DNA from: an uncultured bacterium
GTDB taxonomy: Bacteria; Patescibacteriota; Saccharimonadia; UBA4664
Direction: 5' to 3'
DNA: 64,000 bases
NCBI GenBank assembly: GCA_963720265.1
Contig: CAVRET010000002.1
Span: forward strand, 200,704-264,703
The notes below the pieces were generated by a model, which was given only the letters and a program-made list of their open reading frames with translations, searched no databases and was not told where the DNA came from. Below are positions 6,856 through 56,589 of this stretch, piece by piece. The position numbers and the translations under genes were made by a program. Within the stretch, counting starts at the first letter, position 1; each line of letters starts with the position of its first letter.

Positions 6856-9436
6856 AGAATTGTGGCGGGTTGAGGTAAAGCTCTGGGTTAAGGGTAATTT
6901 GCTCAGCGACTTGCTGGCCGGCTGATCCCGGCCCCAGCCGGCTAAACAAGATGTTTTGCGCCATCAAGAAGCCGTTCACATCGAGCACCGGACTCGTCAC
7001 ACCGCATGGCGAATCCGGAGACGCAGCCAGTCCGCAGGTATTAATCGTTCCATCGGCAAACAAATAGGCGTCTACCTGGGTGACCGAACTAAGAATGTCA
7101 ATATTGCCGCCCGCAATCACACCCAGCGACGGAATTGTACAACTGGAAACAGTCGAGCAATTACCGCCATTGACCGTGTTGTCTATTGCCAACGTACCAT
7201 TCACCACCACTCTGGCCGACGGCACCACGAGCGTAATCTTGTTGCTAATCGTGCCGGAGATATCCAGCTCACCCCCACCCTGGAAGTAGTACAGCCCGCT
7301 CTTGCCCGTAGCGCTCCAAGTCGTTGGTGATGCACTTACACCAATTGTCTGGATACCGCCACCACCACTAGCATAGTAATCATTCGCAACCGTCAATAGA
7401 TCTGGACGACAGACTGACGCATAGCCACCGTTACTCCCAATCTTGAGGTCGTCAGCACCACCGCTATTACTGGCGAAGTTCTGGATCGTACCCGACGCCG
7501 ACAGCACGTACTCGTCTTCTGAGGCCGCAAAGCCGCTGCCCGTGATACTGCCCGTCGACAGGGCCTGGCCACATAGTCCCCCGCCCGCGTGCACATCGCC
7601 GTTCTGGCCAACAATTGCCGGAAAGCTTTTTGAGCTTTTAACCGTATAACATACTTGGTTAGTGCCATTGGCCGGACCTGGATTGGCCCCTGTTACTGGA
7701 GCTATCGTGTCGCTAAAGCAAAACACGGTACCGTCAGCAACAGTCGACGCTATGGTATACCCAAAAACGACTTTGGGCACAACGCTCCCCCCATCTATGG
7801 TCGTATTAGCCGGTATCGACTGATTGAGATTCCCCTGCGGCGTCGCATCCGGTGTAATATCCGTGGCAACGCACGCCGCCCCATTTTCCGTACAGGTTGG
7901 CACCGTAGTTGCTACCGGGCCGTTGCTAGGACCAGAGTTCGAACCGTCAACATTGAACTCTACATGCAGGTCAGCCGGCTGCGAAACATCCAATTGCTGT
8001 CCGGCAGTCTTGCCGTCCGCTATATCAATATTCGATGAGTAATTGTAGCCGCAAGTTATAGCATAGTTAATCGAGTCATACGGTATCCACATTTGTATGT
8101 TGTGAGCGTTAGTCGGAGGATCTTGTCCCGCTGTCCCCTCAAAATAAGCGTCAACATTGTGCCAAATCCATTGATACTTATAGCCTGGTTGAGCCGTGAA
8201 ATTCACCTCACGATAGTCCTGGAATCCGCCGATATTATTCACCGCGCCAACGCCGTTCGCATTAGTGCCTGTGGCAGGAAGAGGGTTGCCGGGCAGATTT
8301 TGCTGACCAAATCCCGTAGAACCTCCGGGCATCGTCTCAACCAGGGAGCGTACCCCCGTCGGAGAAACACCGAATAGCTGAAAACTATTGGCAATGTCCG
8401 AGCCCGACGGGCTCCACGGATTGGCAGTCGGGTATGCAGTGTTTGCATTACCGTCATGGCCCGGATTATTGGTGACATCGGAACTGTCACCGTTTTTCCA
8501 GCGAATAGTCGCGGTCTCAGGCGAGGTTAGGGTGCATGGAGGCGCAAAATCAGTCTCAACGTTTTGAATGTCATAGTCTACACCCGTGCCAATGTCGTGC
8601 ATGGTAAACGAACCGAAGGTTGGGTATGTACCGGTACCGGTGACACCATTTTGAGCCCAGTAACCCACATTGTCCTGGGCCTGCGGGGTTTGCACGAGAT
8701 ACGCGTGCAAACGGGTCGTCCCAAACGCGGGCGGCGGCGGAACCAGGGGATTCTGACAGTCGGCAGTTAGTGCGGAAGGACAATTCCCCCATCTGGCTCT
8801 CATCAAAACAACGTAGTAATTGGTACGTGCTGATAACGCTGTCCCAGCCAGAGGCAGATTGATGTTACCGGTCCAAGTACCAGATCCAACGCCCGTGGCA
8901 CGGGTAATGGCAGGATTGTTAAAATCTTTCCCCGTCTGGCCGTCAATCGTATAAATCAACGAGGTGGGATTTTCGTTCGCATCGGTGTTGTAGAAGTCAT
9001 ACAGCACCTGATCGTTGGTATCGTCCGGAATACCGGGGAACGGACATGAGCCTCCGTGCTCGACCATACTCCAGTCGCCGCCTGCGACATACTGGTCACA
9101 CTCAAAGGGCATGTTAAAAAGTTTCAAGATTCCAAGCCCGGCATCGGCAGGGGAAAAATAGAGCTTCACCCACGTCACAGGTGATTCAATTAGCGTCTTG
9201 GGGCTAGTGCTTTCCGTGATAGCCAGACTCTCCTGGTCACTGTTGCCAGGTCCGCCGAAAGTACCGGGCTGGCCGGCCGGTGACGGAAGCTGGGTTGCAC
9301 CCGCCGCCAGTACCTTCTTGGGCGTACCCAAAATATCCAGGCCTCCCGAAACCGCGCCAACCACGACTAACAATGCCATGGCAACAAAAGCTGCCTTGTG
9401 CCGGTCTCTCCATCTCGGTTGCTCTACTCGGGGCAT
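6791..9436 (-). CDS. Large (881 aa) N-terminally anchored secreted or surface protein, rich in Gly/Thr/Asn; first gene of the pilM-N-O operon.
   Basis: It has a transmembrane/signal segment, low-complexity beta-rich composition, and sits where a secretin or adhesin would be expected; it does not resemble PilQ. Confidence 0.5.
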   Translation of the reverse strand: MPRVEQPRWRDRHKAAFVAMALLVVVGAVSGGLDILGTPKKVLAAGATQLPSPAGQPGTFGGPGNSDQESLAITESTSPKTLIESPVTWVKLYFSPADAGLGILKLFNMPFECDQYVAGGDWSMVEHGGSCPFPGIPDDTNDQVLYDFYNTDANENPTSLIYTIDGQTGKDFNNPAITRATGVGSGTWTGNINLPLAGTALSARTNYYVVLMRARWGNCPSALTADCQNPLVPPPPAFGTTRLHAYLVQTPQAQDNVGYWAQNGVTGTGTYPTFGSFTMHDIGTGVDYDIQNVETDFAPPCTLTSPETATIRWKNGDSSDVTNNPGHDGNANTAYPTANPWSPSGSDIANSFQLFGVSPTGVRSLVETMPGGSTGFGQQNLPGNPLPATGTNANGVGAVNNIGGFQDYREVNFTAQPGYKYQWIWHNVDAYFEGTAGQDPPTNAHNIQMWIPYDSINYAITCGYNYSSNIDIADGKTAGQQLDVSQPADLHVEFNVDGSNSGPSNGPVATTVPTCTENGAACVATDITPDATPQGNLNQSIPANTTIDGGSVVPKVVFGYTIASTVADGTVFCFSDTIAPVTGANPGPANGTNQVCYTVKSSKSFPAIVGQNGDVHAGGGLCGQALSTGSITGSGFAASEDEYVLSASGTIQNFASNSGGADDLKIGSNGGYASVCRPDLLTVANDYYASGGGGIQTIGVSASPTTWSATGKSGLYYFQGGGELDISGTISNKITLVVPSARVVVNGTLAIDNTVNGGNCSTVSSCTIPSLGVIAGGNIDILSSVTQVDAYLFADGTINTCGLAASPDSPCGVTSPVLDVNGFLMAQNILFSRLGPGSAGQQVAEQITLNPELYLNPPQFFDEASDNGSSLEGQGERPPLF

Positions 9437-17499: not shown

Positions 17500-17553
17500 G
17501 GGAGCTCAAAAGCTCCCCAACCTAAAAGCTCAAATGAAATTTGAGCTTTTAGG
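17500..17553. terminator. Two adjacent hairpins between the convergent pgsA-like gene and ftsK: GGGAGCTcaaaAGCTCCC (17500-17517) and a 15-bp perfect stem CCTAAAAGCTCAAAT-gaa-ATTTGAGCTTTTAGG (17521-17553).
   Basis: The perfect inverted repeats can be read directly; there is a U-rich flank on the minus strand. Confidence 0.6.
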
Positions 17554-17592
17554 TTGGTATCAACACGGGATTACATACCCAATCAGTGTGAA

Positions 17593-27069: not shown

Positions 27070-27186
27070 ACTCGCCTCCAGGCGGTGCTTGATAGGTACG
27101 TTTCCGTTGCTGTCCGGGCTCATCCTACGACAAGCACGGGCAGCAATGAAACATGGTGGCCATTAATGACGAGCCGCTAAGCGAAC

Positions 27187-27453
27187 TTAGCGCCGCAAAT
27201 CGAGCTTCTTCAACACTTCCTGATACTTATCAGGATTGTGACGGCTCAAATAATCGAGCAACGATCGGCGCTTGCCCACCATCTTCAAGAGTCCGCGGCG
27301 CGAATGCTCATCTTTCTTGTGTTCCTGCAAATGCTTGGTTAGCTGCTTAATTTGCTCGGTAAAGATGCCAATCTGGACCTCCGGCGAACCGGTGTCCTTC
27401 TTGTGGCCCTGCAGGCCGGCAATAACCTTCGATTTGGTATCAGGCTTCAACAT
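27187..27453 (-). CDS. rpsO: 30S ribosomal protein S15.
   Basis: Typical S15 sequence ([14 protein letters not shown]...[23 protein letters not shown]). Confidence 0.92.
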
Positions 27454-27459
27454 AACTTG

Positions 27460-27491
27460 AGTATATTATCACTTTTCGGGCGCTCTGGCAA
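27460..27491 (-). promoter_or_regulatory. Putative rpsO promoter: TTGCCA, a 17-nt spacer, TAATAT, then the ATG 9 nt downstream, giving an almost leaderless transcript.
   Basis: The hexamers were read on the minus strand. Confidence 0.45.
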
Positions 27492-28253
27492 GGCCTAAAT
27501 CTGAAAATGCTTGGCTCCGGCCCTGAACCATCGAACAACATGTTCAATACCTCAGGGCCGGGCGCCCCTCCGAGCGCGACGACATTGTCGCGAATCGGAA
27601 GGACGCAGATGAAAAAGCGGGTAGGCCGGATCGGGCCGGCTAATTCCACGTGTAGTAGAAGACGGCATCCATGCCGTCACCTCCTTCCGGAAACCGGAAT
27701 CGATTAGCTAATGACTATCTGCTGGATGTCCCAGTGAGCACGCCGCTGCGTCCAAAGCTGGGATCAGTGGGCCGGTGCGGAGGTACCCAAGCGCCGTCAG
27801 GCAGCAGCTCGCCGGTGTCTTCGAACTGCACGATCCCGTTACATAGCAGGCTCCAACCCTGCTCGGGGTGGCTCACGACCGTGTGCGCGGCCTCCCGGTC
27901 GGGAGCACTGGCCTCCGGGCATGGTGGTGAGTGTGGGCACATAGGAAGAATCTCCTTTTGTGGGTTTGGGCAGAAATCGGATTTCTGCGATTGCCGCTGC
28001 TTGCGGAAGAACTGCCCGCTTACTTCTCAACTTACAGAGACATACCATGTCGCATTCAGCCTGCACTCAGGTTATGAGCACGTGCGAATACGAAGCGGTC
28101 GTCTCACGGCTAATATCATCTCGAGGTCGCATCCTCGCGCTAACATCAATCGTGAGCCGGCCGGGACTTAAGAAGTAAGGTACATCTCAGTTATAAACCT
28201 GTCATACCAATTTAACAATGGCTTGACAATAATATATTGTGCATCTTTTATAC

Positions 28254-36445: not shown

Positions 36446-36468
36446 CGGCCCTCCGGGGCCGTTTTTTT
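36446..36468. terminator. Intrinsic terminator (CGGCCC-uccg-GGGCCG followed by T7) shared by the convergent DUF2795 gene and polA.
   Basis: Hairpin followed by a T-run on the + strand and an A-run/hairpin/U-rich stretch on the minus strand. Confidence 0.7.
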
Positions 36469-36469
36469 A

Positions 36470-39241
36470 TTACAGCTCGCCCCAGTTTTTACCCACGGCC
36501 GTGTCCACTACCAACGGCACACCAAGGTCAATCACACCGCCCATCGTTTCCTCGAGCAGCTTGGCCACGGCCGTGCCTTTAGCCTCCGGCGCTTCCACGA
36601 TCAGCTCATCGTGAATCTGTAGCAATAGCCCGCAATCATCGTCCAGCTTGCGATCAACTGCAATCATGGCCAGTTTGTAGATCTCGGCTGCAGCACCCTG
36701 CAGCGGCAGGTTAATCACCACCCGCTCAGTTGCACTCCGTATCTGGTAATTGGTCGACCGGATTTCCGGAAACGCGTGCCGCCGGCCAAATATCGTCTCA
36801 ATGTACAAATTGTCATAAGCAAACTTCTTCAGGTCGTCTAGGTATGTCCGCACCTTGGGTCGCGCCATAAAGTAGCGGTCAATAAACTCTTGCGCCTGTT
36901 CCATCGGCATACCGGTGGCGACACTCAGCCCATGTGGGCTCATGCCATACAGCACACCAAAATTAATGGTCTTAGCCGCCGCCCGCTGCTCTTTTGTTAC
37001 CGCGTCCAGTGGCACTTCAAAGAGTTCCGCCGCCGTCTGCGCATGCAGATCAAGTCCCTGTTTAAATGTCTCGATCATATTCTCGTCACCACTCAAGGCT
37101 GCCGCCACCCGCAGTTCGATCTGCGAATAATCCCCGCTCACCAACACCCGGCCCTTGGGTGCCACAAAACACGTGCGGATTTCACGCCCCATCTCGGTCC
37201 GGACCGGAATATTCATGAGATTGGGCTTGCTTGAGCTCAGTCGCCCAGATGGCACAATCACCTGGCTAAAACTCGTATGCACGCGCCCATCCGGCCCGAC
37301 CTGGCCCGGCAGGGCATCTGCGTATGTATTTTTGAGCTTATCAAGCTCGCGGTATTCCATGATGAGACCAACAATCGGGTGAGCATCGCGCAGTTTCTCC
37401 AGCTCCCCGGCCGCTGTCGACCAGCCGGTCTTGCCCTTCTTCACGCCAGCCGTGGTAAGTCCCAGCCGACCATACAAAATTTGCCCCAATTGCGCCGGAC
37501 TACCCAAATTAAATTCTTCGCCTGCCAGCTCGTAAATCTGGCTTTTGAGCTCACCAATCCGGCCGCTCAATCGCCGTCCAAATTTCTCAAGTGCGGCCGT
37601 ATCCAGCTCAATCCCGCGCAGCTCCATATCGCCGAGTACCGGAATCAGCGGCCATTCCACTTCGGTTGCCAGCCGCTCCATGCTCCAGCCGTAGGCGTTT
37701 GGAGTACTAAACTCTGCCAACTGCCCACGCAAACGCTCGTACAGTCGCCAGGCCATATCGGCGTCCTCAGCTGCATAGGTTGTAGCGTGCTCGATCAGTG
37801 TTTTATCAAACGTGGTTTCGTGTTTACCCGCACCGATCAGCTCAGAAATCGGAATCATTTCAATGCCCAGCTCGTGAAACGCCAAACCATCAAGCGATTG
37901 CGCCCGGCCGAGCGAGTTGAGCAAAAACGCCGCCACCATGGTATCAAACACAATCCCGCGCACGTGCACCCCACACTGGGCCAGCACTTCGTAGTCAAAC
38001 TTCAGATTGTGCCCGACTTTACCAATCGCCTTATTCTCGAACACGGGCCGCAAAGCTCTCACCACCTCGTCATGCGCTAGCTGAGTCCCCTGGACATGCC
38101 CCACCGGCACGTAGAACGCCTCGCCTTCGTGAAAGCTCACGCTTAAGCCCACGAGCTTAGCCGTCATAGTGTCTACGCCGGTTGTCTCAGTGTCAAACGC
38201 AAACACCTCTTGTCGGTTCAAGCTCTCCACCAGCTTTTCCAGCTCAGCCGGTGTTGTCACCGACCGATAGTTGGCGCCTGCCAAATGTGTCCGCTCTTTC
38301 TTAACCGCCGCTTCACCATCGCCAAACAACGTCGGCGCCCCAGCCGGCTGTGCCTCTGTCGCCGCCGGCGCGCCCGGTAGTCTTGCAAGCAACCCGTGCC
38401 GGAAGTCCAGTCGCCGGAACAGGTCGTCAAGCTCATCGCGCCGGTATTGCCCAATTCGTGCCGCATCCAGGTCCAACTCCAAGTCCATATCGCACTTAAT
38501 CACGCTCAATGCTCGGCTCATATAAGCCATGTCCTTGCCGACCCGCAGCTTCTCTCCTACGCTCCCGCTAATCTCGTCGACATGCTCATAAATGCCGTCG
38601 AGCGTCTTGTATTCAGCCAGCAGCTTCTGCGCACCCTTATCGCCGATCCCAGATACGCCCGGAATGTTGTCGCTCGTATCACCCACCAGCGCTTTGTAAT
38701 CAATAAATTGCGCCGGCGTCAGCCCGTACTTTTCGCGCATTTTCGCCAGGTCATAGCGCGTCGGCTCCATGCCCCGCGGATTAAACATGTCCACCACCGT
38801 CTTCTGGTCCACCAGCTGCAGCTGGTCGCGGTCGCCGGTCGCGATCACAATGTTCAAATCTCCGCGTGCTTCAGCCTTGCGCGCAAGCGTACCAATAATA
38901 TCATCGGCCTCGTAGTTCTCCGCCTCAACAAACGGCAATCCCAGAGCGCGCACCAGTTCCTTCGTTGGCTCGATCTGCACTCTCAGCTCGTCATCCATCT
39001 TTTTGCGCGTCGCCTTGTAGCCCGCGTACATTTCATTGCGAAACGTCTTGGCCGACTTGTCCCAGGCCACAATCACATAATCCGGCTTCAGGCTCTCCAG
39101 CACCTTAACCATAATCGTGAGAAACCCATACACCGCGTTCGTCGGCTCACCGTCTTTATTGGAAAGGTGCGGAATCGCATGGTACCCGCGGTGAAACACC
39201 GCCGACCCGTCTACCAACACCAACAGTGGTTGCTTGCTCAT
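36470..39241 (-). CDS. polA: DNA polymerase I (5'-3' exonuclease, 3'-5' exonuclease and polymerase domains).
   Basis: 923 aa. N-terminal exonuclease motifs, and the polymerase motifs RRAAKTINFGVLYG and HDELIVE. Confidence 0.95.
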   Translation of the reverse strand: MSKQPLLVLVDGSAVFHRGYHAIPHLSNKDGEPTNAVYGFLTIMVKVLESLKPDYVIVAWDKSAKTFRNEMYAGYKATRKKMDDELRVQIEPTKELVRALGLPFVEAENYEADDIIGTLARKAEARGDLNIVIATGDRDQLQLVDQKTVVDMFNPRGMEPTRYDLAKMREKYGLTPAQFIDYKALVGDTSDNIPGVSGIGDKGAQKLLAEYKTLDGIYEHVDEISGSVGEKLRVGKDMAYMSRALSVIKCDMDLELDLDAARIGQYRRDELDDLFRRLDFRHGLLARLPGAPAATEAQPAGAPTLFGDGEAAVKKERTHLAGANYRSVTTPAELEKLVESLNRQEVFAFDTETTGVDTMTAKLVGLSVSFHEGEAFYVPVGHVQGTQLAHDEVVRALRPVFENKAIGKVGHNLKFDYEVLAQCGVHVRGIVFDTMVAAFLLNSLGRAQSLDGLAFHELGIEMIPISELIGAGKHETTFDKTLIEHATTYAAEDADMAWRLYERLRGQLAEFSTPNAYGWSMERLATEVEWPLIPVLGDMELRGIELDTAALEKFGRRLSGRIGELKSQIYELAGEEFNLGSPAQLGQILYGRLGLTTAGVKKGKTGWSTAAGELEKLRDAHPIVGLIMEYRELDKLKNTYADALPGQVGPDGRVHTSFSQVIVPSGRLSSSKPNLMNIPVRTEMGREIRTCFVAPKGRVLVSGDYSQIELRVAAALSGDENMIETFKQGLDLHAQTAAELFEVPLDAVTKEQRAAAKTINFGVLYGMSPHGLSVATGMPMEQAQEFIDRYFMARPKVRTYLDDLKKFAYDNLYIETIFGRRHAFPEIRSTNYQIRSATERVVINLPLQGAAAEIYKLAMIAVDRKLDDDCGLLLQIHDELIVEAPEAKGTAVAKLLEETMGGVIDLGVPLVVDTAVGKNWGEL

Positions 39242-39285
39242 ATATCTTATTGTAGCTCATTTAAGCGTATTATTTCGTAAAAATA

Positions 39286-39314
39286 TTGACAAATGTTTAA
39301 AGCTGTGCTAATAT
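39286..39314 (+). promoter_or_regulatory. Consensus sigma-70-type promoter: TTGACA, a 17-nt spacer, TAATAT.
   Basis: TTGACA at 39286-39291, spacer of exactly 17 nt, TAATAT at 39309-39314. It is divergent from polA (which has TACAAT 7 nt before its ATG). Confidence 0.6.
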
Positions 39315-39320
39315 GTATTA

Positions 39321-39717
39321 ATCCCGTTGCGAGGCGCCACACTTCGAGGCAATCCAGTCTCGAGTGAACGCAATCGGAGCGCCGAGCCCTGTATTTTGGG
39401 GCGATGAGTCTGCACTCGTTTCTTCGGCCGCATAGCGACCAAGAGTCACGCAGTGCAAGGAAGTTCACAAAGCCGGGCATAACGCGCGCTGCGCGGTCCG
39501 CACCCTTTACTGAGGCGTAGTCCTCCCGATGACCGGCCCGTTTCGCATTCTGCGGACGGTTCTGCCGGATGGTTGTCCATGTTCCTTTCGTTCATGTGGG
39601 CACTCGACGCCCCTCGTTTCACCCCCCCCACACAGCTGGGGACCGTGTCGCGCGTGCGACACGGTCCCCAGCGACACCCAACTTGCACGATCCCCCAGCC
39701 AACGGCTGGTATTTTTT
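39321..39717 (+). ncRNA. Candidate non-coding structured RNA of about 400 nt, class unknown, bounded by a consensus promoter and an intrinsic terminator.
   Basis: No ORF has an RBS. It contains a 16-bp perfect hairpin (39636-39671), other stems, and a terminator CCAGCC-aac-GGCTGG followed by TATTTTTT (39695-39717). No RNase P, tmRNA or SRP signature motifs were found. Confidence 0.4.
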
Positions 39718-39771
39718 GCCCTTACGAAGCTCATAGCCAATACCGTCAATCCGCAGTAAAACGCCTCTTAT

Positions 39772-40833
39772 CTATAGCGATTGCTTCCAAAAAGCAGTCG
39801 TTCGCTGCAAAAATAACGCCAGGTTCTCCGAGCTTGCTAGTTGGTGGTCGTCTCCCGAATAGGTATAAAGCGTCACCGTCTTGTGCGCCTTCGCGAGCGC
39901 GCTATCAAGTTCGCTTGAAAACGTATACGGCACCACGCTGTCATCCAGGTCTGCGTCAATCTGTACCGGTCCGTGCGCGCCACTCACATAAGTAATGGCC
40001 GACGCTTCGTTCCAAAAACCGGGGTCGCTCTTGGGCGTGCCATACTGCTGTGTCAATGCCTGCAACTCGGCCTGCACAGCAGTTGCCGGTTGGTCATTTG
40101 GCGCCGGCGAGTTCGGCCAATTATAAAACAGATCGTACATCGACCCTACCACGCCGTTTACCAACACCGTCGCCGCTACATTCTGGCTAATAACGGCCAC
40201 ATTCAACGCCACGTGTCCGCCCATACTGTGACCGACCAGTCCAATGTGGGCCGGATTAATCGCCGGATTAGCCCGCAATGATGCAATCAGGTTCATCACG
40301 TCATAGGTATAATCCGGGTCCCAATGCCCGCTCACAGCGCTGCCACCGCTGTCGCCGTTGCCGCGCAAATCCGGCTGCACCACCACAAAGCCGGCCTGCG
40401 CCCAGGGCCCAATCCAGCTCGTGTAGGCATCGGATACTGTATTGTATTCAGCCGGGTCAATATACCCGTGCACGAGCACAATCACCGGCCAACCACCCTT
40501 TGGCATCGACCCATCCGGCTGAGCCCAATATGCATACTCGGTCAAGCCGTCCGAGGTAAATGTCACCACCTTAGCCGAGTAGCCGCCATACATTCCCACC
40601 TGTCGACTCGTTGTAATTGCGCTCGCCGTGTACTCCCGTGTCCGCATGGCCGGGATCGTAATTGGATTGAGGGCCGGTGTCTGGCTCGGCTGAACCGACG
40701 CCGAAGGACGCGCTGTTGTCTGCCCGGCCACCGGCGCCAGCTCCTGTCGCCTAGAGGCCCCCACGGCCGCAGCCGTCAGAATTACGACCACTACGGCTAG
40801 TAACACGTCATGTCGGCCAAACCGGCGCTTCAT
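39772..40833 (-). CDS. Secreted or membrane-anchored alpha/beta-hydrolase (S9 / dienelactone-hydrolase-like).
   Basis: N-terminal transmembrane/signal segment; nucleophile elbow GHSMGG; 353 aa. Confidence 0.75.
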   Translation of the reverse strand: MKRRFGRHDVLLAVVVVILTAAAVGASRRQELAPVAGQTTARPSASVQPSQTPALNPITIPAMRTREYTASAITTSRQVGMYGGYSAKVVTFTSDGLTEYAYWAQPDGSMPKGGWPVIVLVHGYIDPAEYNTVSDAYTSWIGPWAQAGFVVVQPDLRGNGDSGGSAVSGHWDPDYTYDVMNLIASLRANPAINPAHIGLVGHSMGGHVALNVAVISQNVAATVLVNGVVGSMYDLFYNWPNSPAPNDQPATAVQAELQALTQQYGTPKSDPGFWNEASAITYVSGAHGPVQIDADLDDSVVPYTFSSELDSALAKAHKTVTLYTYSGDDHQLASSENLALFLQRTTAFWKQSL

Positions 40834-40957
40834 ACGTCAACCCTAACCCGTAATTAGGAAACCGCAAAGCTCAACCCTTAGTTGAACACTCCGATTCTCT
40901 CAGGAGTCGCGGCCACCTGCGTGGCCGCGACTCCTGCCGTGTCACCCTCCTTGCTCG

Positions 40958-41291
40958 TCAATGTGATGCCGCCACTGCCGCCAGCGCCCGGCTGCTGGAC
41001 TCACCGATCAGGACACCGACAATGACCCGCCTGCCAAACCAGACCACAGTCTTCACATACTGGAAGACGTACTCCCGCAGTCCCAGCGCACCCGGACCAT
41101 ATACGACGTACCGGTCTTCCTCCGCCCAGCCGAAGCGGGCGTAGGCTGGAGTGCCATCACCCCGTTTCATGAGCTTGTTGTCGGCCGGATCCCAGGCTGC
41201 CACTATCGGGCTGCCACCGGGGGTACGCCGCAATGCGACCCACACTCGATTGTCCGTCGCCTCGACCTTGCTAACGTCTGCGCTTGCCATC
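40958..41291 (-). CDS. Small hypothetical protein (about 111 aa, start MASADVSK...).
   Basis: SD AGGAGGGTGAGG immediately upstream of the ATG; a paralog of the adjacent small gene. Confidence 0.5.
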
Positions 41292-41319
41292 CTCACCCTC
41301 CTATTCGCCGTTCCGGCGG

Positions 41320-41622
41320 TCATGTCGCCAGTATTCCGCCGGTTTCGTTGTCCGCAGCAGCCGGTAGGGTCAGCATGCCGACGATGATCGTCGTGCCGCC
41401 GGTCCCGACCAGTCGCTGCTTGAGCCGGAGCGCCACCTGAACCTGACGCCAGTCCAATACGCTGAAAACGTCGTCTCCCAGGTCCTCCCACGAGAAACCG
41501 GAGTAGTCGCGTTCGTCCTCGGCCACCAGGCCACCGCTGTCATCTTCGGCCCAGGGAACAACAACTTTGACGCCGCGATTCCTCTGCAGGGCCACTATCT
41601 GCGGCCCGCTCGGATTGGGCAT
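41320..41622 (-). CDS. Small hypothetical protein (about 100 aa, start MPNPSGPQ...).
   Basis: SD GGAGGAGG with a 6-nt spacer. It shares the GxP-IVA...WAE(D/E)D pattern with the 40958..41291 product. Confidence 0.5.
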   Translation of the reverse strand: MPNPSGPQIVALQRNRGVKVVVPWAEDDSGGLVAEDERDYSGFSWEDLGDDVFSVLDWRQVQVALRLKQRLVGTGGTTIIVGMLTLPAAADNETGGILAT

Positions 41623-41734
41623 AACGTGCCTCCTCCCAACGCGGATGCTGTCGTACCGTAACACATTTAATCAAAAAAGTCTACATAACCAACGAGGAGC
41701 CAGCTGGCTCCTCGTTGGTTATTCCTCGTACTAC

Positions 41735-43369
41735 TTAGGTTGACGGACGAGTATCAATAACGCGCGCCGGATGCAGCCGTGCGGTCCGGCTGGTATAAAT
41801 ATCATCCACTAGCCGAGCACGGCTCGCTGACACTGCCGCCAGCTCCGTACTCGCACCGGCAATTGCCGGCACCGCTTCAGCCTCCACCTCTTGCGCTTCG
41901 CGGACCTCAGCCCGATTGGGCCTGCGGGCCTTAATCACCACGGCAGCCACCAGACTCGCCGTCACGGCAAACAGTGCCGCGGCCGCAAATCCCCGTTGGA
42001 ACCCGTGTACCAGCGCCGCCGGCACCGCTGCCGCCAGCACTGCCTTGGCCGCGAGCGGGTTTGTAGCACTTGCCGCAGCCGAGGCCGCGTTCGCCAGATC
42101 GGTTTTCGTCACTGACGTCGACACCACACTTAGCACCGCAAGCCCTATCGCCCCGCCAATCTGTTGCCCCGTATTAAGCAGCCCCGAAACCAGCCCCGAT
42201 TCCTCTTGGGATGTGCCGGTCGTGGTCACAATCGTAGTCGTCACAAACACCGCCGCCATACCCGCTGCCATCAAGGCCACGCCCGGGAAAATGTCAGTCC
42301 AATAACTAGCATGCACCGGAAGCCGAGCAAAGTACGCCAGCCCTGCCGCCACCACCAGCGGCGCTATCACCAAGATAGGCTTGGGATTGATCTTGCCAAT
42401 AAACCGTGACAAAACTCCTGCTACGACGATCAGTATGAGGGTAAATGGCACATCCGCCACACCGGTCATGGTCGGCGAATAGCGCAGAATCTGCTGCAGG
42501 TAAATCGACAGGTAAAAGAACATCCCAAATATGGCCGCCGGCATCAGCAACTGAATAGTCGTGCCGCCGCTCACATTCCGCCGCTTAAAGATACTCAACT
42601 TGATGAGCGGCTGCTTGCGCAACAGCTCATTCACAATAAACAGGATCATTAACACGGCCGACAACCCAAACGCACCCAGCGTCACGTCATTGCCCCAGCC
42701 CTTGGTCGGCACCTGCGCCAACGCGTACACCAGGCTCATTAAGCTCCCGGTCACCGTCACCGCACCGGCAATATCCATGCTCGTCCGCGCGGTCGGCAAA
42801 CTCTTGGGCACAAACCTCAGGGAAAGGATCAGTACCACAATCGCAATCGGTACGTTAATAAAGAAGATCCAGCGCCAGTCCACGTACTGGGTCAGCAGGC
42901 CGCCAAGCAAGAGTCCAACTGCTCCGCCACCGCCGGCCACCATGCTCCATAGTCCCAGCGCCCGGTTGCGCTCCTGCCCCTCCTTAAAGATCGTCAGCAC
43001 CAGCGACAGCGCAGATGGTGCCAGCAGCGCCCCGCCCAGTCCTTGCAGCGCCCTAAATGTCACGAGCATAGCCGGGCTTTGCGAAAACCCACCAATCAGC
43101 GACGCCGACGCAAATAACGCCACACCGGCCATAAAGATCCGACGCCGGCCAAACAAATCAGCCAACCGCCCACCGAGCAGCAAGAAACCGCCAAACACGA
43201 GCGCATAGGCCGTTACCACCCACTGTAATTGCGACGCGTTTGTAAAACCAAGCGCCTTTTGGATCGCGGGTAGGGCCACGTTTACGATCGTAGCGTCCAA
43301 AATCACCATAAACTGCGCTGCGGCTAGTACCGCCAGCGCCAATCCCTTATGTTTCACAGCCTCAATCAT
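41735..43369 (-). CDS. MFS transporter, DHA2 (EmrB/QacA) drug-efflux family with 14 transmembrane segments.
   Basis: 544 aa; MFS motif A GRLADLFGRRR; 14 hydrophobic segments. Confidence 0.88.
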   Translation of the reverse strand: MIEAVKHKGLALAVLAAAQFMVILDATIVNVALPAIQKALGFTNASQLQWVVTAYALVFGGFLLLGGRLADLFGRRRIFMAGVALFASASLIGGFSQSPAMLVTFRALQGLGGALLAPSALSLVLTIFKEGQERNRALGLWSMVAGGGGAVGLLLGGLLTQYVDWRWIFFINVPIAIVVLILSLRFVPKSLPTARTSMDIAGAVTVTGSLMSLVYALAQVPTKGWGNDVTLGAFGLSAVLMILFIVNELLRKQPLIKLSIFKRRNVSGGTTIQLLMPAAIFGMFFYLSIYLQQILRYSPTMTGVADVPFTLILIVVAGVLSRFIGKINPKPILVIAPLVVAAGLAYFARLPVHASYWTDIFPGVALMAAGMAAVFVTTTIVTTTGTSQEESGLVSGLLNTGQQIGGAIGLAVLSVVSTSVTKTDLANAASAAASATNPLAAKAVLAAAVPAALVHGFQRGFAAAALFAVTASLVAAVVIKARRPNRAEVREAQEVEAEAVPAIAGASTELAAVSASRARLVDDIYTSRTARLHPARVIDTRPST

Positions 43370-43482
43370 GTGCGTCTCCCGTGCTCAAACTTATTTTGCT
43401 ATTCAGATATTTATTATTACTGAATGTAGTATATCTCAATGTTTGAGGTTGTCAAATATTTAATACGTAGTACAATGAAGAC
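43370..43482. promoter_or_regulatory. AT-rich divergent marR/MFS control region with the palindrome ATTCAG-N13-CTGAAT (43401-43425) and a marR promoter TTGTCA-16-TACAAT with the ATG 6 nt downstream.
   Basis: Read directly from the sequence. Confidence 0.6.
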
Positions 43483-43905
43483 ATGAATATCACGTCTGAA
43501 CAAGTCTGCCAGGATTTACTGGGTTTAATCGGCCGCATCAAGACGAGCCTTGCCAGTCTCTCCGAAAAATACGACCTTACCATCATGCAGGTCCACGCGC
43601 TCTATGCGATCTCACAAGGTGACGCCACCATGGGCCAAGTTGCAACCACCCTGCACTGTGACGCCTCAAACGTTACCGGTATCGTCGACCGCCTGGTGGC
43701 CGGCCACCTCATTACCCGCCAGGAAGGCACCCAGGACCGCCGCACCAAGACCCTCCAGCTCACCGATAAGGGCCACGCCGCCGTAAATGACATCTACGCA
43801 AATCTCCCCGCCCAACTCGGCTGCAGCCGCTTAAGCGACGACGAGCGCACCACCCTCCACGGTATCGTTACCAAACTCATCGCCGACGCGCCGGTTAAGG
43901 CCTAA
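43483..43905 (+). CDS. MarR-family transcriptional regulator.
   Basis: wHTH typical of MarR; divergent from the MFS efflux gene. Confidence 0.85.
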   Translation: MNITSEQVCQDLLGLIGRIKTSLASLSEKYDLTIMQVHALYAISQGDATMGQVATTLHCDASNVTGIVDRLVAGHLITRQEGTQDRRTKTLQLTDKGHAAVNDIYANLPAQLGCSRLSDDERTTLHGIVTKLIADAPVKA

Positions 43906-44045
43906 AAACAACAAAGACCAGAGGTCTCAATAATTCTCGATATTTGAATGCTCAGGTCTCCGCAGGAGCACGAACCCTATCTAACGGGTCCGGGCTCCTG
44001 GGCATAATGTATCTCGAGCGGTCTAGTTGAGTCCGAACTACAAGG

Positions 44046-44399
44046 CTAGATGGCGCCCGTGTAGGCTTTCACAGCCCCCAATTGCTTGCGAAACTCAGAC
44101 CATTGCGCGTCGGCCGAAGCTCTCACGCCCTTCCATGCCACACCTGCAGACGGAAGCCGCGCCTCAGTCTCCCTTGCCTGCTCAGCGTGGACCAGAGTGA
44201 GAAACAGCGCTCGCACGGCATTCGCGGCCTGTTCGGCGAGTTCGTAGGCACCGACGACAGTCGAATCCGCCGCTGCCATGTCACCGACCTGCATGAGTAT
44301 GGCCCTGAGCCGTTCGTCGAGCGCGGTAGCGACGAACCGAATTGCCGGGACACGAATCACGCTACGCTTGGATGCAGCCGCCTCACCAATGTAAAACAA
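44046..44399 (-). CDS. Hypothetical Ala-rich protein (weak call).
   Basis: GC-rich ORF of 117 aa with no motif. Confidence 0.25.
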   Translation of the reverse strand: MFYIGEAAASKRSVIRVPAIRFVATALDERLRAILMQVGDMAAADSTVVGAYELAEQAANAVRALFLTLVHAEQARETEARLPSAGVAWKGVRASADAQWSEFRKQLGAVKAYTGAI

Positions 44400-44456
44400 G
44401 CCTGCACGAAATTGTCGCGAAGCTCACCTCCGTCGAACCTGCGAACACGCAACACC

Positions 44457-44753
44457 TTACGTTTCTTCCATGTAATCTGCAACTATATTAACAATTTGTT
44501 GGACTTGAGGTGAGCAATTCTTGAACCAGACACAATCATACATGTCATCGCCATATTTCCTGATTGCTTCACTTATCAACGCATGCACAAAGGACTGGGT
44601 CGCTCCCGTGATTCCCTGAAAGTCTAGAGTGATGTCGCCACCTTTTTTAAGCACCGGAAAGATTTCATTTATCCGCAAATCCCGGGCCACATCCTTATTC
44701 TCTGCAAACTGACCAGTTAACCGAAGCAATTTTATTGTTTTCATTGTCCTCAA
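44457..44753 (-). CDS. DUF4325 / STAS-like domain protein (anti-sigma-antagonist-like fold).
   Basis: 98 aa. DFQGITGATQSFVHAL resembles the STAS phospho-loop. It lies 3 nt downstream of the GHKL ATPase gene. Confidence 0.6.
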   Translation of the reverse strand: MRTMKTIKLLRLTGQFAENKDVARDLRINEIFPVLKKGGDITLDFQGITGATQSFVHALISEAIRKYGDDMYDCVWFKNCSPQVQQIVNIVADYMEET

Positions 44754-44756
44754 GGG

Positions 44757-45740
44757 TTATATAAAATGCGGACGCTTGTAGCGAGCCTTTCTTCGCTCCC
44801 GCACTGCCGACGAGTAGGCTTTTCTAATCTCCTCCAGGAGGGAAGCAAACTCGCCAATTTTATCTAGAGAAATATCAATCGCCACCAGAGTCCCTTGCAG
44901 AAAAGGTGCCTCGTTAGTTGACGCATGCCTATCTTTGTTAGGATCAGCGTTCAAGCGAATTAACCTTACGTCTGGTCGACGCTTGAGCAAACGGTATACG
45001 CCGCTACCGCTGTAAATCATGAAATAGTCCCTGGTTAGCATCGCGATAGACTTCACAAAGAACAAACCTGCCCCAGCGTTCTCAGCAGTACCCCCCTCCC
45101 TAGTGGTTGTGCCGGATACTCCTGGAACCAAGGCCCACTTTATGGCATCAAGGTCAGACCGCGTGTGATTCGCCCAAACCTTAGCCATTGACTGACGAAT
45201 GCCAATGCCTGTATCGCAAATACCTAAGCGAATAACGTTTGAGTCCTGATAGTACTGAGCAGCAACGATAGCCCCATTTTCGGAATGGGAGTGCTCCAAC
45301 ACATTTCTTACTAGCTCGCCTACCGTGTATTTAATAGCATCGGCCTGAGATGGCTGGGCTTGGAGATGAAGCAGCGGCACAATATCGGATATAAACCTGG
45401 TTTGCTCAATTTGAGACTTAATTTGGGTCAACGGAATGAAGCGACCTGCGGGCTCATGACGCGTAATACTGAAAGGTGAGTCTACCCGAAGGATTTTGAA
45501 CAGCTGCATTCTGTCGAGATAATGGCCTGAGCGTGCTTTTATCTCATCAAAAAGGATTGATTCGAGCTTAACATTGAGACCAAGAGCAGCAACTAAAGTT
45601 AGGATGGCAGGATGCACACTTATCCATTTATCGTTAGTTGTCACCTCTAGCCTTGTTGGCTCTGAGGTATCAAGAAAGCGCAAAAATGAATCAATGTTCC
45701 GCAAATAATCGTTATTAGACAGGTGGACCTTCATAAGCAC
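44757..45740 (-). CDS. GHKL-superfamily ATPase (HATPase_c) with an N-terminal domain of about 130 aa of unknown function.
   Basis: N-box ELVRNVLEH, G1 box DTGIGI, G2 box GAGL. The ATG at 45734 or the GTG at 45740 could be the start. Confidence 0.65.
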   Translation of the reverse strand: MLMKVHLSNNDYLRNIDSFLRFLDTSEPTRLEVTTNDKWISVHPAILTLVAALGLNVKLESILFDEIKARSGHYLDRMQLFKILRVDSPFSITRHEPAGRFIPLTQIKSQIEQTRFISDIVPLLHLQAQPSQADAIKYTVGELVRNVLEHSHSENGAIVAAQYYQDSNVIRLGICDTGIGIRQSMAKVWANHTRSDLDAIKWALVPGVSGTTTREGGTAENAGAGLFFVKSIAMLTRDYFMIYSGSGVYRLLKRRPDVRLIRLNADPNKDRHASTNEAPFLQGTLVAIDISLDKIGEFASLLEEIRKAYSSAVRERRKARYKRPHFI

Positions 45741-45751
45741 TATTTTACCAG

Positions 45752-45829
45752 TAGGTTACGTTCTCAGTCAATACGTAACCTACCGGGTAAGAACCACTAG
45801 GTTACATAATTTCGCAGAACGTAACCTAG
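45752..45829. promoter_or_regulatory. Two similar palindromes, TAGGTTACG-N13-CGTAACCTA (45752-45782) and CTAGGTTAC-N15-GTAACCTAG (45797-45829), directly upstream of the GHKL ATPase gene; candidate operators.
   Basis: The inverted repeats can be read directly. Related GTTACGA motifs recur at 47069-47181. Confidence 0.55.
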
Positions 45830-45993
45830 AGGCAACGACGCGATCGTAAGCAGAACCCATACTGAGCCAGTACAAACCAGAAACTACGCGTTCAACCATT
45901 AACCGTGATAATGCTTACTACTCGATCCGGATGAGCTGTTGTGGCTGAACAAAGGCATAAACGTTTGATCTTCCATTTAGCCCGCGCTAATTC

Positions 45994-47058
45994 CTACTTG
46001 CTATCGGCGTTTTCGTCCATGTCACGCGGTGGAAAGAAGTAGCTAACCGAAGAATCCGCCAGCTGATCCAAAAACAGCTCTCGGAGGTTCGCGAGTGAGC
46101 CTTGTTCATAGAACAAGATCAGTGCGGCCTTATAAGCCTCGATATCCACACTCCGGTATGACAGTGGCGGAAAGCCGTAGGCTAGCAAAACAGCGTTAGC
46201 GAGCAGGCGTGACGTACGCTTATTACCATCAACAAATGCTTGAAGATACGGCAACAGTACCAGGCACGCCATAGCCTTCTCGAGTGGCTGTTCTAACCCA
46301 TTGATCGTATCAATTGCATCACGCATATAGGTATTAAGCTCAGCCTGACTGGCGGGCGGAATGTACACCGTACCCGTAATACCCACCGGCTCGTTGCGCA
46401 GTCCAAACTGCACCTCCAAGCCCTCGACCAGCAACTGATGAATCTCCTCGATCTTACCCTTGGTAAGCATCCGGTAATCCTCCGGGTGCTCCCAGATGTA
46501 ATCAAAGGCTTTTTTGTGATTTAAAATCATCACCGCTTCAAAGTGTTCGTGGCCCGGTGCTTCTTTGGCATCTTGCAGTAGTCGCTCCGTATCGAGCAAC
46601 GTATATGTATTCCCCTCGATCTTTGAGCTCTTCCAACTCAGTTCAATTACAAACCGCTCTCGTTCTTTTTGTGCACTAACAGTATTACCTAGCTCTTGCC
46701 GCCGCTTTACGCCGATTTGGATACCTGTAGGTACGTCGAAAATCGTGCCACGGATAGTTTTAAACAAATCGGGCTCAATGTGCCTGTAGCGGGCCTGGCG
46801 CTGATCTGGTTCCTGGGCTAGATACGCTTTAGCATCCCAAACGACCGCTGTTTTCCCTTTCCCAGTGATGGCATAGACGGTCGCTCGGGCCTCTCCATAC
46901 GTCTCAACATATCCCTGGTCTACTAGCTGGCCGAGCTCACGAATTGTATTAATCCGGCTCTCCCCTGTCGCCTGCTGGATGGCAACACGAGCCAGCTTGT
47001 CGAAGGTGGCAAGCAAACGCAGAATTTTCTTAGAACGATCAGTTATCGTAACATTCAT
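45994..47058 (-). CDS. Fic/DOC-family protein with an N-terminal wHTH and a degenerate Fic motif (QAFVDGNKR instead of HPFx[DE]GNGR).
   Basis: Fic fold; motif ...LPYLQAFVDGNKRTSRLLANAVL; 354 aa. Confidence 0.75.
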   Translation of the reverse strand: MNVTITDRSKKILRLLATFDKLARVAIQQATGESRINTIRELGQLVDQGYVETYGEARATVYAITGKGKTAVVWDAKAYLAQEPDQRQARYRHIEPDLFKTIRGTIFDVPTGIQIGVKRRQELGNTVSAQKERERFVIELSWKSSKIEGNTYTLLDTERLLQDAKEAPGHEHFEAVMILNHKKAFDYIWEHPEDYRMLTKGKIEEIHQLLVEGLEVQFGLRNEPVGITGTVYIPPASQAELNTYMRDAIDTINGLEQPLEKAMACLVLLPYLQAFVDGNKRTSRLLANAVLLAYGFPPLSYRSVDIEAYKAALILFYEQGSLANLRELFLDQLADSSVSYFFPPRDMDENADSK

Positions 47059-47328
47059 ATACTAGTATCGTAGCACGAGTGTTACGATTAGGCAACGCTT
47101 TTGTTACGATTTAGACATTTCGTGACACGTACGGCCCAGAATCATAACATATTGATACGAATAAGCATCTTAAATGTTACGAAGCCAATGCACGCTAACC
47201 ACATGAATTTACACCGTTATAGTCCGCAACTCTGTAAGCCAACCGGATGCAATCTCGGTCCAATACCAAAAAGGGAGTCCTAGGCTCATCTTGGTCGCAC
47301 GTTCTGCACCCATCTGTATAATGTGCGC

Positions 47329-48063
47329 ATGAAGATCATCCAATTAAACCTCTGGCTGGGCCACATCCTTGATGCCGCCCTCGCCTATATCGACCGCGAA
47401 AACCCCGACGTTCTCTGCGCCCAGGAAGTTAATAGTGCCGAGCATGGCTACGGGCTGTTCGCCTCATACCAAACCCACCAGCGGATGTCTGAGCTCTTCC
47501 CGTACCAGTTCTTCGCGCCCACCTATTCATACCAAGCTCTCGGAGAAACAGTTCAGTATGGCAATGCCATCTACTCTCAACTCCCGCTCGAAAACACCTC
47601 GGTCACATTTACAGCCGGGGCTTACAAAGACAACCGCACTATAGGCAGTCGTGGCTTCGAAATCCGCAATCTCCAAGTCTGCGAAGTCAACCATGGAGAT
47701 GGGGTACTCACCATCGCCAACCACCACGGGTATCACACTCCGAGTCCTGAGGACACCGCCGACACCATCGCGTCGATGCACCAGACTGCCAAACGGCTGC
47801 GGCAAGTCAAAACTCCGCTGGTATTATGTGGCGACATGAACGCAGGCCCCACCAGCCGCACGCTCGCCCAACTGGAGCCTTTGGGGCTTCGTAACCTCAC
47901 CGTCGAACATCACATCACCCATACCCTTTCGAGCGTCCACCGGATCAAGGCCGGCGCGGTGAGTGACTACATCCTCGTGAGCCCTAACCTCACCGTTACT
48001 GGGTTCCATGAAGCCAACGAGATAGTGTCCGATCACAAAGCGCTCGCGCTCACACTAGCTTAA
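47329..48063 (+). CDS. Endonuclease/exonuclease/phosphatase (EEP) family protein (the track start is GTG at 47323; the ATG at 47329 is the likely leaderless start).
   Basis: EEP motifs including the C-terminal SDH. TATAAT at 47317-47322 lies 6 nt before the ATG. Confidence 0.7.
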   Translation: MKIIQLNLWLGHILDAALAYIDRENPDVLCAQEVNSAEHGYGLFASYQTHQRMSELFPYQFFAPTYSYQALGETVQYGNAIYSQLPLENTSVTFTAGAYKDNRTIGSRGFEIRNLQVCEVNHGDGVLTIANHHGYHTPSPEDTADTIASMHQTAKRLRQVKTPLVLCGDMNAGPTSRTLAQLEPLGLRNLTVEHHITHTLSSVHRIKAGAVSDYILVSPNLTVTGFHEANEIVSDHKALALTLA

Positions 48064-48084
48064 TAATCATCTGCCGATCAACCA

Positions 48085-48112
48085 AAGAAGCACCCCAAAA
48101 GAGGTGCTTCTT
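48085..48112. terminator. 10-bp hairpin AAGAAGCACC / GGTGCTTCTT between the convergent EEP gene and rpoD.
   Basis: The inverted repeat can be read directly. Confidence 0.5.
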
Positions 48113-48138
48113 GAGTTTCGTACGTAATCGAGCCGAAA

Positions 48139-52110: not shown

Positions 52111-52170
52111 TATCGTATCATTCGTGAAAGTTTGACCGGGCCGTGGGGAGCATGCTCCCCACGGCCCCAG

Positions 52171-55181: not shown

Positions 55182-56098
55182 ACCTGAGTCTCAAAACCCC
55201 TGGACCACCAAAGTAAAAAGACGCTAGGCTGTCCTTGTTACGTCGACAAAAACAAACAAGGAAATAGCAAATGCGTCTTTTACGTGCTCATCATATCGTC
55301 AAACTGGTTGAGGTGGTAGATAGCTTCTTTCCGAGGCAGCCGGCAAATCCCCTGGGCGGCCGCCCCGTCATCTTGCACCAAAATGAGTGCGTTGCCCTAC
55401 TGGTATTTAGCTGCCTGGTAGCCCCGCAACGCACCCTCAAGGGTGTATATATCTGGTCCCAAACGTATTATTACCGCCGGTTCCACTTGCCCAGTTACCA
55501 ATCGTGGGTCCGTAAATGCCACCTGGCTCTGCCTCAGATGCTCATCATGCTCGACCAGTTGTTGGTCAAGGACGCGCCTCTCGTCTTCATGGACTCAACC
55601 ATGCTTGAGGTCTGCAAGCTAGTCCGGGCCGACCGGCACAAAGTCGCCCAAGGAGTGGCCGACTTTGGTATGAACCACCAAGGGTGGCATTTTGGTTTTA
55701 AGCTCCATGCCAGCTGCGCCGCCAACGGCAGTCTGTGCGCCATCTGGTTTACGCCGGCCAATGAGAGTGACTCGCAGCAAATACCACATTTGGTCAACGA
55801 CGCAACTGTCATTGCCGTGGGTGACGGTGGTTACCTGGCCAAAGTCATGAGCAAGAAGATGTGGGATCTGCACCAGACCTACATACTGGCTCCCGCTCGA
55901 CGCAACCAGAAGCAGCCCATGGCCAGCTGGCAGGGCCTCCTGCTTCGCAGGCGGCCCAAGGTTGAATGCACCTTTGACTACCTAAAAGAACATTTGAACC
56001 TCGTCAGCTCATTTCCGCGAAGTGTCATGGGCTACTTCGTTCACTATGTCCGCATTCTGCTCAGCTACCAGCTGATGTGGGGGTTTTGAGACTCAGGT
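55182..56098 (+). mobile_element. Intact IS982-family insertion sequence (917 bp) with perfect 19-bp terminal inverted repeats ACCTGAGTCTCAAAACCCC and a 6-bp target-site duplication ACGTTA.
   Basis: Left inverted repeat at 55182-55200; right inverted repeat at 56080-56098 (its reverse complement is identical); flanking ACGTTA at 55176-55181 and 56099-56104. Confidence 0.75.
55271..56089 (+). CDS. IS982-family DDE transposase.
   Basis: FMDSTMLEVC...GWHFGFKLHAS...IAVGDGGYLAK match the IS982 DDE-region signatures. The stop codon lies inside the right inverted repeat. Confidence 0.75.
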   Translation: MRLLRAHHIVKLVEVVDSFFPRQPANPLGGRPVILHQNECVALLVFSCLVAPQRTLKGVYIWSQTYYYRRFHLPSYQSWVRKCHLALPQMLIMLDQLLVKDAPLVFMDSTMLEVCKLVRADRHKVAQGVADFGMNHQGWHFGFKLHASCAANGSLCAIWFTPANESDSQQIPHLVNDATVIAVGDGGYLAKVMSKKMWDLHQTYILAPARRNQKQPMASWQGLLLRRRPKVECTFDYLKEHLNLVSSFPRSVMGYFVHYVRILLSYQLMWGF

Positions 56099-56223
56099 AC
56101 GTTAGTATTGACATTTTCGAGCAAAAGAAGTATTATTATCAATGTCGATCGGGAACGCCTCGGCGACAACTAATCGCTTGTCGCACCTAATTACTTGAAT
56201 GATCGCCAACCAGGGAGGCCGTC

Positions 56224-56589
56224 ATGGCAGACCAAACCCCCTACACCTCGGACGATATCGACCGCGGGCTCGCTGCGATTCGTCCTGACTACTACGAGCC
56301 GCCGGTCGAAATGGACTTGCGCGGACTCGACGCCGCGACCAGGGCACTCGGCTTGACCTACGGCTTCGACCGTTGGCAAGACGCCCGGGTCATGGCCAAC
56401 AACCGACGTCTGGTCGAAACCGCGCGGGAGCACTGGAATGAAGTCGGTCATCCGACCGACGACTTCCTGCGCCACACGCTCGGCGAGGACGAGAGCGCGG
56501 TCCGCCACCGTCATCTGCTCGAACGTGCCCACCCCGACTGCGCCAGGTGCGCGGACAAGGTTGCGCTCCTCCAGGGGGACGCAACCTGA
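56224..56589 (+). CDS. Hypothetical protein (121 aa).
   Basis: SD GGGAGG with a 6-nt spacer; no known motif. Confidence 0.5.
   Translation: MADQTPYTSDDIDRGLAAIRPDYYEPPVEMDLRGLDAATRALGLTYGFDRWQDARVMANNRRLVETAREHWNEVGHPTDDFLRHTLGEDESAVRHRHLLERAHPDCARCADKVALLQGDAT

Follow-up and report, generated by a model that had tools for sequence, protein, structure and literature searches.

Introduction

Predictors of small RNAs (sRNAs) which are based on promoters and terminators look for an orphan promoter followed by a Rho-independent terminator, and their targets are species-specific intergenic candidates. Another type of intergenic element is the I-shaped hairpin, a long-stem, U-tract-poor hairpin at the end of a gene, which has been described for Actinobacteria and mycobacteria. 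In the literature on non-coding RNAs and leaderless transcription in Saccharibacteria and Patescibacteria we have found nothing usable.

In this work, we have analyzed a stretch of 64,000 nucleotides from an uncultured member of the Saccharimonadia, which we call the window. All the features under study are located in a single spacer of 530 nt (39242–39771) between polA and an alpha/beta-hydrolase gene. A previous reading of the same DNA, made from the letters alone (the sequence-only reading), had considered this region as a candidate novel large non-coding RNA. As in an orphan intergenic sRNA gene, the spacer contains an ORF-less promoter which is followed, on the same strand, by an intrinsic terminator. 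It also contains a long perfect hairpin. The coordinates of these features, as well as those of comparable hairpins in the window, are given in Table 1.

Table 1. Features of the polA-hydrolase spacer, its flanking genes and other perfect hairpins in the window.
Feature	Position	Strand	Remarks
polA (DNA polymerase I, 923 aa)	36470–39241	-	ORF; one flank of the spacer
polA -10 box TACAAT	39249–39254	-	7 nt before ATG; leaderless-type promoter
sigma-70-type promoter TTGACA-17-(TGc)TAATAT	39286–39314	+	Consensus match, score 10/12
Non-coding body of about 310 nt, C-rich toward its 3' end	39321–39634	+	Fold, codon and protein searches
Bulged 8-bp stem-loop CACUUCGAG...CUCGAGUG	39340–39366	+	Predicted; 5' end of the predicted RNA
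C-rich stretch CCUCCC	39523–39528	+	Candidate
C8 run	39622–39629	+	Candidate C-rich stretch; shortly before the long hairpin (5' side), not paired in the predicted fold
Perfect 17-bp GC-rich hairpin, 4-nt loop	39635–39672	both	No U-tract on either strand
C-rich stretch CCCCC	39690–39694	+	Candidate
Intrinsic terminator CCAGCC-AAC-GGCTGG + TATTTTTT	39695–39717	+	Canonical stem and U-tract
alpha/beta-hydrolase gene (353 aa)	39772–40833	-	Pfam Peptidase_S9, Abhydrolase_6, DLH
Perfect hairpin	40901–40936		21 nt past the preceding small gene
Perfect hairpin	41685–41722		12 nt past the MFS stop codon, followed by T6
Perfect hairpin	52138–52167		Intergenic
Perfect hairpin	17517–17557		Intergenic

The spacer and its surroundings

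Both genes which flank the spacer have homologues in other Saccharimonadia. Those of polA, with the Pfam domains 5_3_exonuc_N, DNA_pol_A_exo1 and DNA_pol_A, show 65–87% identity (65–71% in the best species-level genomes), and those of the hydrolase show 60–74%. The hydrolase gene is convergent with the transcript predicted for the plus strand. Hydrolase, spacer and polA are found with 100% identity in an independent Logan assembly (L059), so the spacer junction is not an assembly artefact.

The region from polA to rpoD (39242–48138) is a variable accessory block. Its genes correspond to the alpha/beta-hydrolase, two small ORFs, an MFS transporter, MarR, a GHKL-ATPase-like protein, Fic and a nuclease/phosphatase of the EEP family; in the relatives, the rpoD-polA interval has a different content and is shorter. 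The closest hydrolase homologue (74% identical, in locus L066) adjoins a 920-aa DUF8128/TrwB-like gene (31–2793 of that locus, minus strand); in the sister lineage, there may thus be a link to a conjugative or mobile element.

Some other regions of the window should be mentioned. The 881-aa ORF at 6791–9436 (minus strand) has a codon usage which is atypical for the window and failed a codon-score gene caller; it may code for a surface or horizontally acquired protein. A region of 1.1 kb located 3' of truB (27124–28253) lacks both an Rfam match and any convincing ORF with 90 aa or more, and a 10/12 promoter (28264–28236, minus strand) is directed into it. The relatives have small genes in the corresponding region, one of them DUF5999. 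The 272-aa ORF at 55271–56089 (plus strand) is a putative transposase, to judge from its appearance. Finally, in 56108–56589 (plus strand) an 11/12 promoter leads to a 121-aa ORF with a strong Shine-Dalgarno motif and a GC-rich hairpin past its stop codon.

The polA gene itself has a leaderless-type start. A TACAAT, TATACT or TATAAT box is found 6–8 nt before the ATG of polA in about 15 relatives. Since polA appears to be leaderless, the spacer is not its 5' UTR: The position of the -10 box, 7 nt from the ATG, in a conserved arrangement, rules out this possibility. Leaderless-type starts are common in the window, for example those at 51048, 19893, 16882, 55094, 53392 and 12457. Among the 52 ORFs with at least 150 aa, seven have a -10 box (at least 5/6 matches) which ends 5–9 nt before the start, compared with a background of 0.9%, and a Shine-Dalgarno motif is found in only 12.

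Promoter and terminator

The plus-strand promoter divergent from polA is found where the sequence-only reading had placed it. It consists of a -35 box TTGACA (39286–39291), a 17-nt spacer, TGc and a -10 box TAATAT (39309–39314), and the predicted transcription start is located around 39320–39322. It is placed back to back with the polA promoter, with about 8 nt between both -35 regions. This promoter had been described as the best sigma-70 match in the window, which it is not: Its score is 10/12, and two sites reach 11/12, 56108–56136 (plus strand) and 43455–43428 (minus strand). It is, according to our scan of the window, the only site which unites a perfect -35 box, a 17-nt spacer and TGn.

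Sites with a score of at least 10/12 show a three-fold enrichment in the window (15, 5.0 expected), and those which also have TGn are found twice (0.17 expected). Most of the other strong sites are located directly 5' of the genes for MarR, MFS, the 121-aa protein with a Shine-Dalgarno motif, tRNA-Ser and a 380-aa protein. Since strong sites precede real genes or a tRNA in most cases, the sigma-70 consensus is predictive in this organism.

The canonical intrinsic terminator on the plus strand is also present as described, and the A-tract on its other side makes it strand-specific. There are only two strict terminators in 64 kb: this one and the one at 36446–36461 (plus strand), which sits after a real plus-strand gene. 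The loose terminator pattern shows no local enrichment.

Composition-matched shuffles give an estimate of how often both signals would appear by chance. The promoter is found in 3.2% of the AT-rich blocks (89 nt) and a strict terminator in 0.45% of the remainder, which gives 0.032 × 0.0045, about 1.4e-4, for both signals on the same strand of this spacer. The joint chance is about 0.02 when all the spacers and strands in the window are allowed for. Considering this low value, together with the predictive character of the consensus, we accept that the spacer is, or recently was, a transcription unit. Judging from the consensus matches, it is probably transcribed. The proposal of an ORF-less unit divergent from polA, with a good promoter at one end and a good terminator at the other, is supported.

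Coding potential

No ORF in the spacer has a usable Shine-Dalgarno motif (5–10 nt from any start codon), and neither AUG nor GUG is found at the predicted transcription start (around 39320–39322). Our inspection of the sequence agrees with the previous observation that no ORF between promoter and terminator has a ribosome-binding site.

Codon usage was evaluated with a log-odds model trained with 28 long ORFs. The region 39321–39634 scores between -0.28 and -0.49 bits per codon in all six frames; true gene frames have +0.34 ± 0.18 and off-frames -0.5. The six-frame translation of the spacer has no match in Pfam. The six frames were also joined into one query and compared with 5.8 billion protein clusters, a collection which includes the proteins of the source genome itself, and nothing was found at E ≤ 10. 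A small protein-coding gene is ruled out by the start signals, the six-frame Pfam search, the protein clusters and the codon score.

Known RNA families and folding

When the whole window is searched against Rfam 15 with gathering thresholds, only tRNA-Ser is found. In E-value mode (E ≤ 10), the region 39200–39800 only gives meaningless matches of miRNA-hairpin models to the 17-bp stem, in addition to sub-threshold noise. ARAGORN finds no tmRNA, and a gathering search of 11 related loci detects no RNA gene near polA. The spacer does not belong to any known RNA family according to these searches, as had been claimed.

Along its whole length, a structured non-coding RNA is generally expected to fold with a distinctly lower energy than its dinucleotide shuffles. 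The whole 398-nt region appears to behave in this way, with z = -4.5 on the plus strand and -2.6 on the minus strand. When the 17-bp hairpin and the terminator are left out, the 312-nt body (39321–39632) has z = -0.26 on the plus strand and +0.44 on the minus strand. On both strands, sliding windows of 100 nt are significant only if they include the 17-bp hairpin (z of about -5 to -6). Among the remaining ones, the best has z = -2.2, which is unremarkable in 32 tests. As a control, coding windows of polA gave a mean z of -0.36 ± 0.88. Since the body folds like its shuffles, the claim that the region is densely structured is unsupported: All the excess stability is found in windows which hold the 17-bp hairpin.

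The smaller stems listed in the sequence-only reading do exist, displaced by 1–3 nt, and the C8 run is also present. The bulged stem-loop near the 5' end of the predicted RNA appears in both the minimum-energy and the centroid folds, with a z of only -2.2 for its window.

Long hairpins at gene ends

The hairpin responsible for these values had been described as a 16-bp perfect hairpin at 39636–39671. It is indeed perfect and GC-rich, but it has 17 bp and extends from 39635 to 39672. It is located 99 nt past the stop codon of the hydrolase gene. The window contains four comparable perfect hairpins with 15–19 bp, most of them just 3' of minus-strand genes and most of them devoid of a U-tract. 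Several relatives (L060, L007, L013, L065, L001 and L003) have perfect hairpins of 11–17 bp directly upstream of the polA promoter, at the end of the preceding gene. The recurrence of long perfect hairpins suggests a long-stem terminator style in this lineage.

The hairpin in the spacer has the features expected of a long-stem hairpin at a gene end: a perfect GC-rich stem located past a stop codon, of a type which recurs at gene ends. Because hairpins of this class are found at gene ends, and this one lies 99 nt past the hydrolase stop codon, we read this region as a convergent terminator zone. The hairpin is best read as a terminator-type element, a candidate for both directions. By analogy with the other cases, it most likely ends the convergent hydrolase transcript too; this assignment is based on position and analogy, for a minus strand which has no U-tract.

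Conservation and gene turnover upstream of polA

The spacer was compared by blastn and nhmmer with 81 related loci: 58 genome loci obtained via polA, plus closer relatives obtained by protein search (polA 87%, 75% and 73% identical; hydrolase 74%, 67%, 66%, 62% and 60% identical). The only homologue found is that of the identical strain, L059. The nearest genome in the collections has 87% polA identity, and "not conserved" should be understood as absent at genus-level distance. The sequence-only reading had itself named a lack of conserved sequence or structure in the relatives as evidence against its proposal, and such a lack is what we have found.

The relative with 87% polA identity (L060) is a clear example: Similarity stops 18 nt upstream of the ATG, just past the -10 box, and unrelated DNA is found beyond this point. 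The relative with 75% identity (L061–L064) has an MFS gene, a dubious 165-aa ORF and polA, and the one with 73% (L065) has a purF-like gene, a 138-aa gene and polA. On the other side of the spacer, the resemblance of the relatives with a 74% identical hydrolase (L066 and L079) to the window ends exactly where the stop codon lies. The slot is filled by other, mutually unrelated DNA in L060, L061 and L065.

At least nine relatives have a purF-like amidotransferase gene (GATase_6/7 and Pribosyltran domains) directly upstream of polA. Three of them (L068, L071 and L080) present the order hydrolase, purF-like gene (466 aa), polA. A purF-like gene of 462–466 aa also precedes polA in L001, L003, L006, L008, L012 and L027. 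There is no purF-like homologue in the 64-kb window, where the gene appears to have been lost or relocated. From its position in the relatives, the spacer would occupy the slot of the lost purF-like gene. An all-versus-all comparison of the gaps upstream of polA shows that they only have the purF coding sequence and the start of polA in common. Gaps of 500–1000 nt are also found in this slot in the relatives, and they share no sequence. To judge from these gene orders, the polA-hydrolase slot is prone to rearrangement, and it is rearranged in every relative examined.

The two closest relatives have ORFs 5' of polA (L060, 939–1466, 175 aa; L061, 9494–9991, 165 aa), with no Pfam match, no homologue in the window and an odd composition. 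Both may have been called by mistake in spacers which are non-coding, and in this case the group may often have long gaps without coding sequence upstream of polA. In L003, a bona fide 82-aa ORF (2989–3302, minus strand) with a ribosome-binding site, a terminator and no Pfam annotation is divergent from polA; it is a small gene specific to its lineage. Its promoter, in the same slot, is a consensus TTGACA-17-TATTAT with TGn. As the case of L003 indicates, small units which extend from a promoter to a terminator come and go in this slot; the unit in the window has no such ORF.

A mobile or repeat element has been discarded. No second copy of the spacer is found within the window, and blastn against plasmids and phages gives no true match. 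Seven IMG/VR matches to a 16-mer in a viral scan are chance matches of a single arm, and two exact-pattern scans of metagenomes, with the hairpin and with an internal 21-mer, found nothing.

Discussion

The spacer contains clear transcription signals, it is non-coding, its body has no excess structure and it is not conserved. The reading which we favour, with somewhat more confidence than doubt, is that of an orphan transcription unit, young and specific to its lineage, in a slot prone to rearrangement; its long hairpin would be part of the terminator architecture. A consensus-grade sigma-70 promoter would fire away from the leaderless polA promoter, and its product would be an unstructured, non-coding, C-rich RNA of about 310 nt which would end in a two-hairpin terminator zone. 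The perfect 17-bp hairpin would come first, and most likely it would also serve the hydrolase gene. The second element, a canonical stem with a U-tract, would halt the plus-strand transcript short of the hydrolase gene, which it would otherwise enter in antisense orientation. If it is made, the RNA would have about 350–400 nt and would be young and species-specific, either a by-product of gene turnover or a narrow-range sRNA. This putative RNA is not a conserved, highly structured RNA like RNase P, OLE or GOLLD. A counterpoint should be noted: In a reduced genome of 1.1 Mb, it is somewhat unexpected to find 530 nt which have no function and yet keep strong signals intact, and this leaves room for a real function.

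Such a function might be that of a recent, species-specific regulatory RNA of about 350–400 nt, which acts either in trans via its C-rich tracts or in cis on polA; we consider it unlikely. In the cis variant, competition between the divergent promoters or supercoiling coupling could modulate polA. As for a functional, lineage-specific RNA which acts in trans, a rather doubtful proposal, the C-rich stretches shown in Table 1, possibly unpaired, would pair with target mRNAs at their G-rich ribosome-binding sites, and the 3' hairpins would stabilise the molecule. The idea of a C-rich seed is an analogy with the sRNAs of Firmicutes. The strong, non-random promoter-terminator pair, the non-coding nature of the unit and the C8 run, unpaired in the predicted fold beside a stable 3' hairpin, agree with this proposal. 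A z value near zero is not an argument against it, as base-pairing sRNAs do not need excess global structure. However, the sequence is missing from the closest relatives, 400 nt are a considerable length for a seed-type sRNA, the targets are only hypothetical, and just 12 of 52 genes, about one in four, have a Shine-Dalgarno motif.

The spacer might also have no dedicated transcript at all. The promoter match would then be a by-product of the AT-rich control region of polA, the stem with its T-tract would be there by accident or as an insulator, and the spacer would be rearrangement junk. Shuffling of the AT-rich 89-nt block gives a 10/12 match in 3% of the cases, loose terminator patterns are not enriched locally, and the slot is hypervariable, with gaps in the relatives which share no sequence. 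We nevertheless find this quite improbable in view of the joint chance of promoter and strict same-strand terminator (about 1.4e-4, and about 0.02 window-wide), the rarity of TGn combined with a perfect -35 box and a 17-nt spacer (2 TG sites, 0.17 expected) and the position of comparable sites, mostly 5' of real genes.

It is very unlikely that the spacer corresponds to a decayed gene, either the remnant of a purF-like gene (minus strand) or that of a small plus-strand gene like the one coding for 82 aa in L003, with its signals left as relics. The gene order in L068, L071 and L080 and the absence of a purF-like gene from the window agree with the first possibility, and the unit found in L003, with its promoter, ORF and terminator, is similar in size and orientation. 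The GC skew of 39500–39800 also resembles that of the flanking minus-strand genes. Nevertheless, when the six-frame translation is searched with a profile HMM of 10 purF-like sequences, the best E is about 1.1, and tblastn with all the ORFs of the relatives only gives noise (it dominates one of the outputs, in which 11,000 short queries were compared with a very small database). On these two results we reject a purF-like pseudogene, as they show no residual protein similarity in the slot. In addition, blastn and nhmmer find nothing, no frame keeps a residual codon bias, and intact consensus signals around an unrecognisable body would be odd under neutral decay.

The novel large RNA which was originally proposed, and which would be a structured RNA akin to RNase P, OLE, GOLLD or ROOL, can hardly be maintained: In spite of a length of about 400 nt, a clean promoter and terminator, a z of -4.5 for the whole region and the lack of an Rfam match, which would make it new, all its excess stability comes from one terminator-like perfect 17-bp hairpin, the folded cores of functional RNAs do not typically have perfect stems free of interruptions, and no search has found a homologue, not even in the relatives with an 87% or 75% identical polA, which brings this proposal close to refutation.

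If the unit is real and functional, it would be among the very few candidate regulatory RNAs in CPR/Saccharimonadia, and also an example of de novo birth of an RNA gene at a hot spot of gene turnover. Its present value is mainly cautionary. A promoter-terminator pair and one long hairpin can mimic a large structured RNA, and in this case shuffle controls and a comparison of synteny dispel most of this impression.

How does this locus compare with known systems? The hairpin at 39635–39672 is similar to I-shaped hairpins: It is perfect, GC-rich, devoid of a U-tract and downstream of a stop codon. The 15–19-bp hairpins of the window and the 11–17-bp hairpins upstream of polA in the relatives also resemble this class. 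Unlike its neighbours in the window, which lie 12–21 nt from a stop codon, it is found at 99 nt; unlike I-shaped hairpins, it has a second, canonical terminator next to it on the plus strand, and its role in termination is putative.

RNase P, tmRNA, 6S, SRP, OLE, GOLLD, HEARO, ROOL and raiA only have the size range and a stand-alone promoter and terminator in common with the spacer RNA, which differs from the large non-coding RNAs of Rfam in that it has no covariance-model match, no excess structure in its body and no conservation.

The similarity to intergenic sRNA candidates is closer. The unit is intergenic, with an ORF-less sigma-70 promoter and, a few hundred nt further on, an intrinsic terminator; it is non-coding and belongs to no Rfam family. 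Unlike most of these candidates, it is longer (about 350–400 nt), it is absent even at the genus level, and it is known here from its sequence alone. It may be considered, at most, as an unconserved addition to the orphan intergenic sRNA candidates, which are a familiar class.
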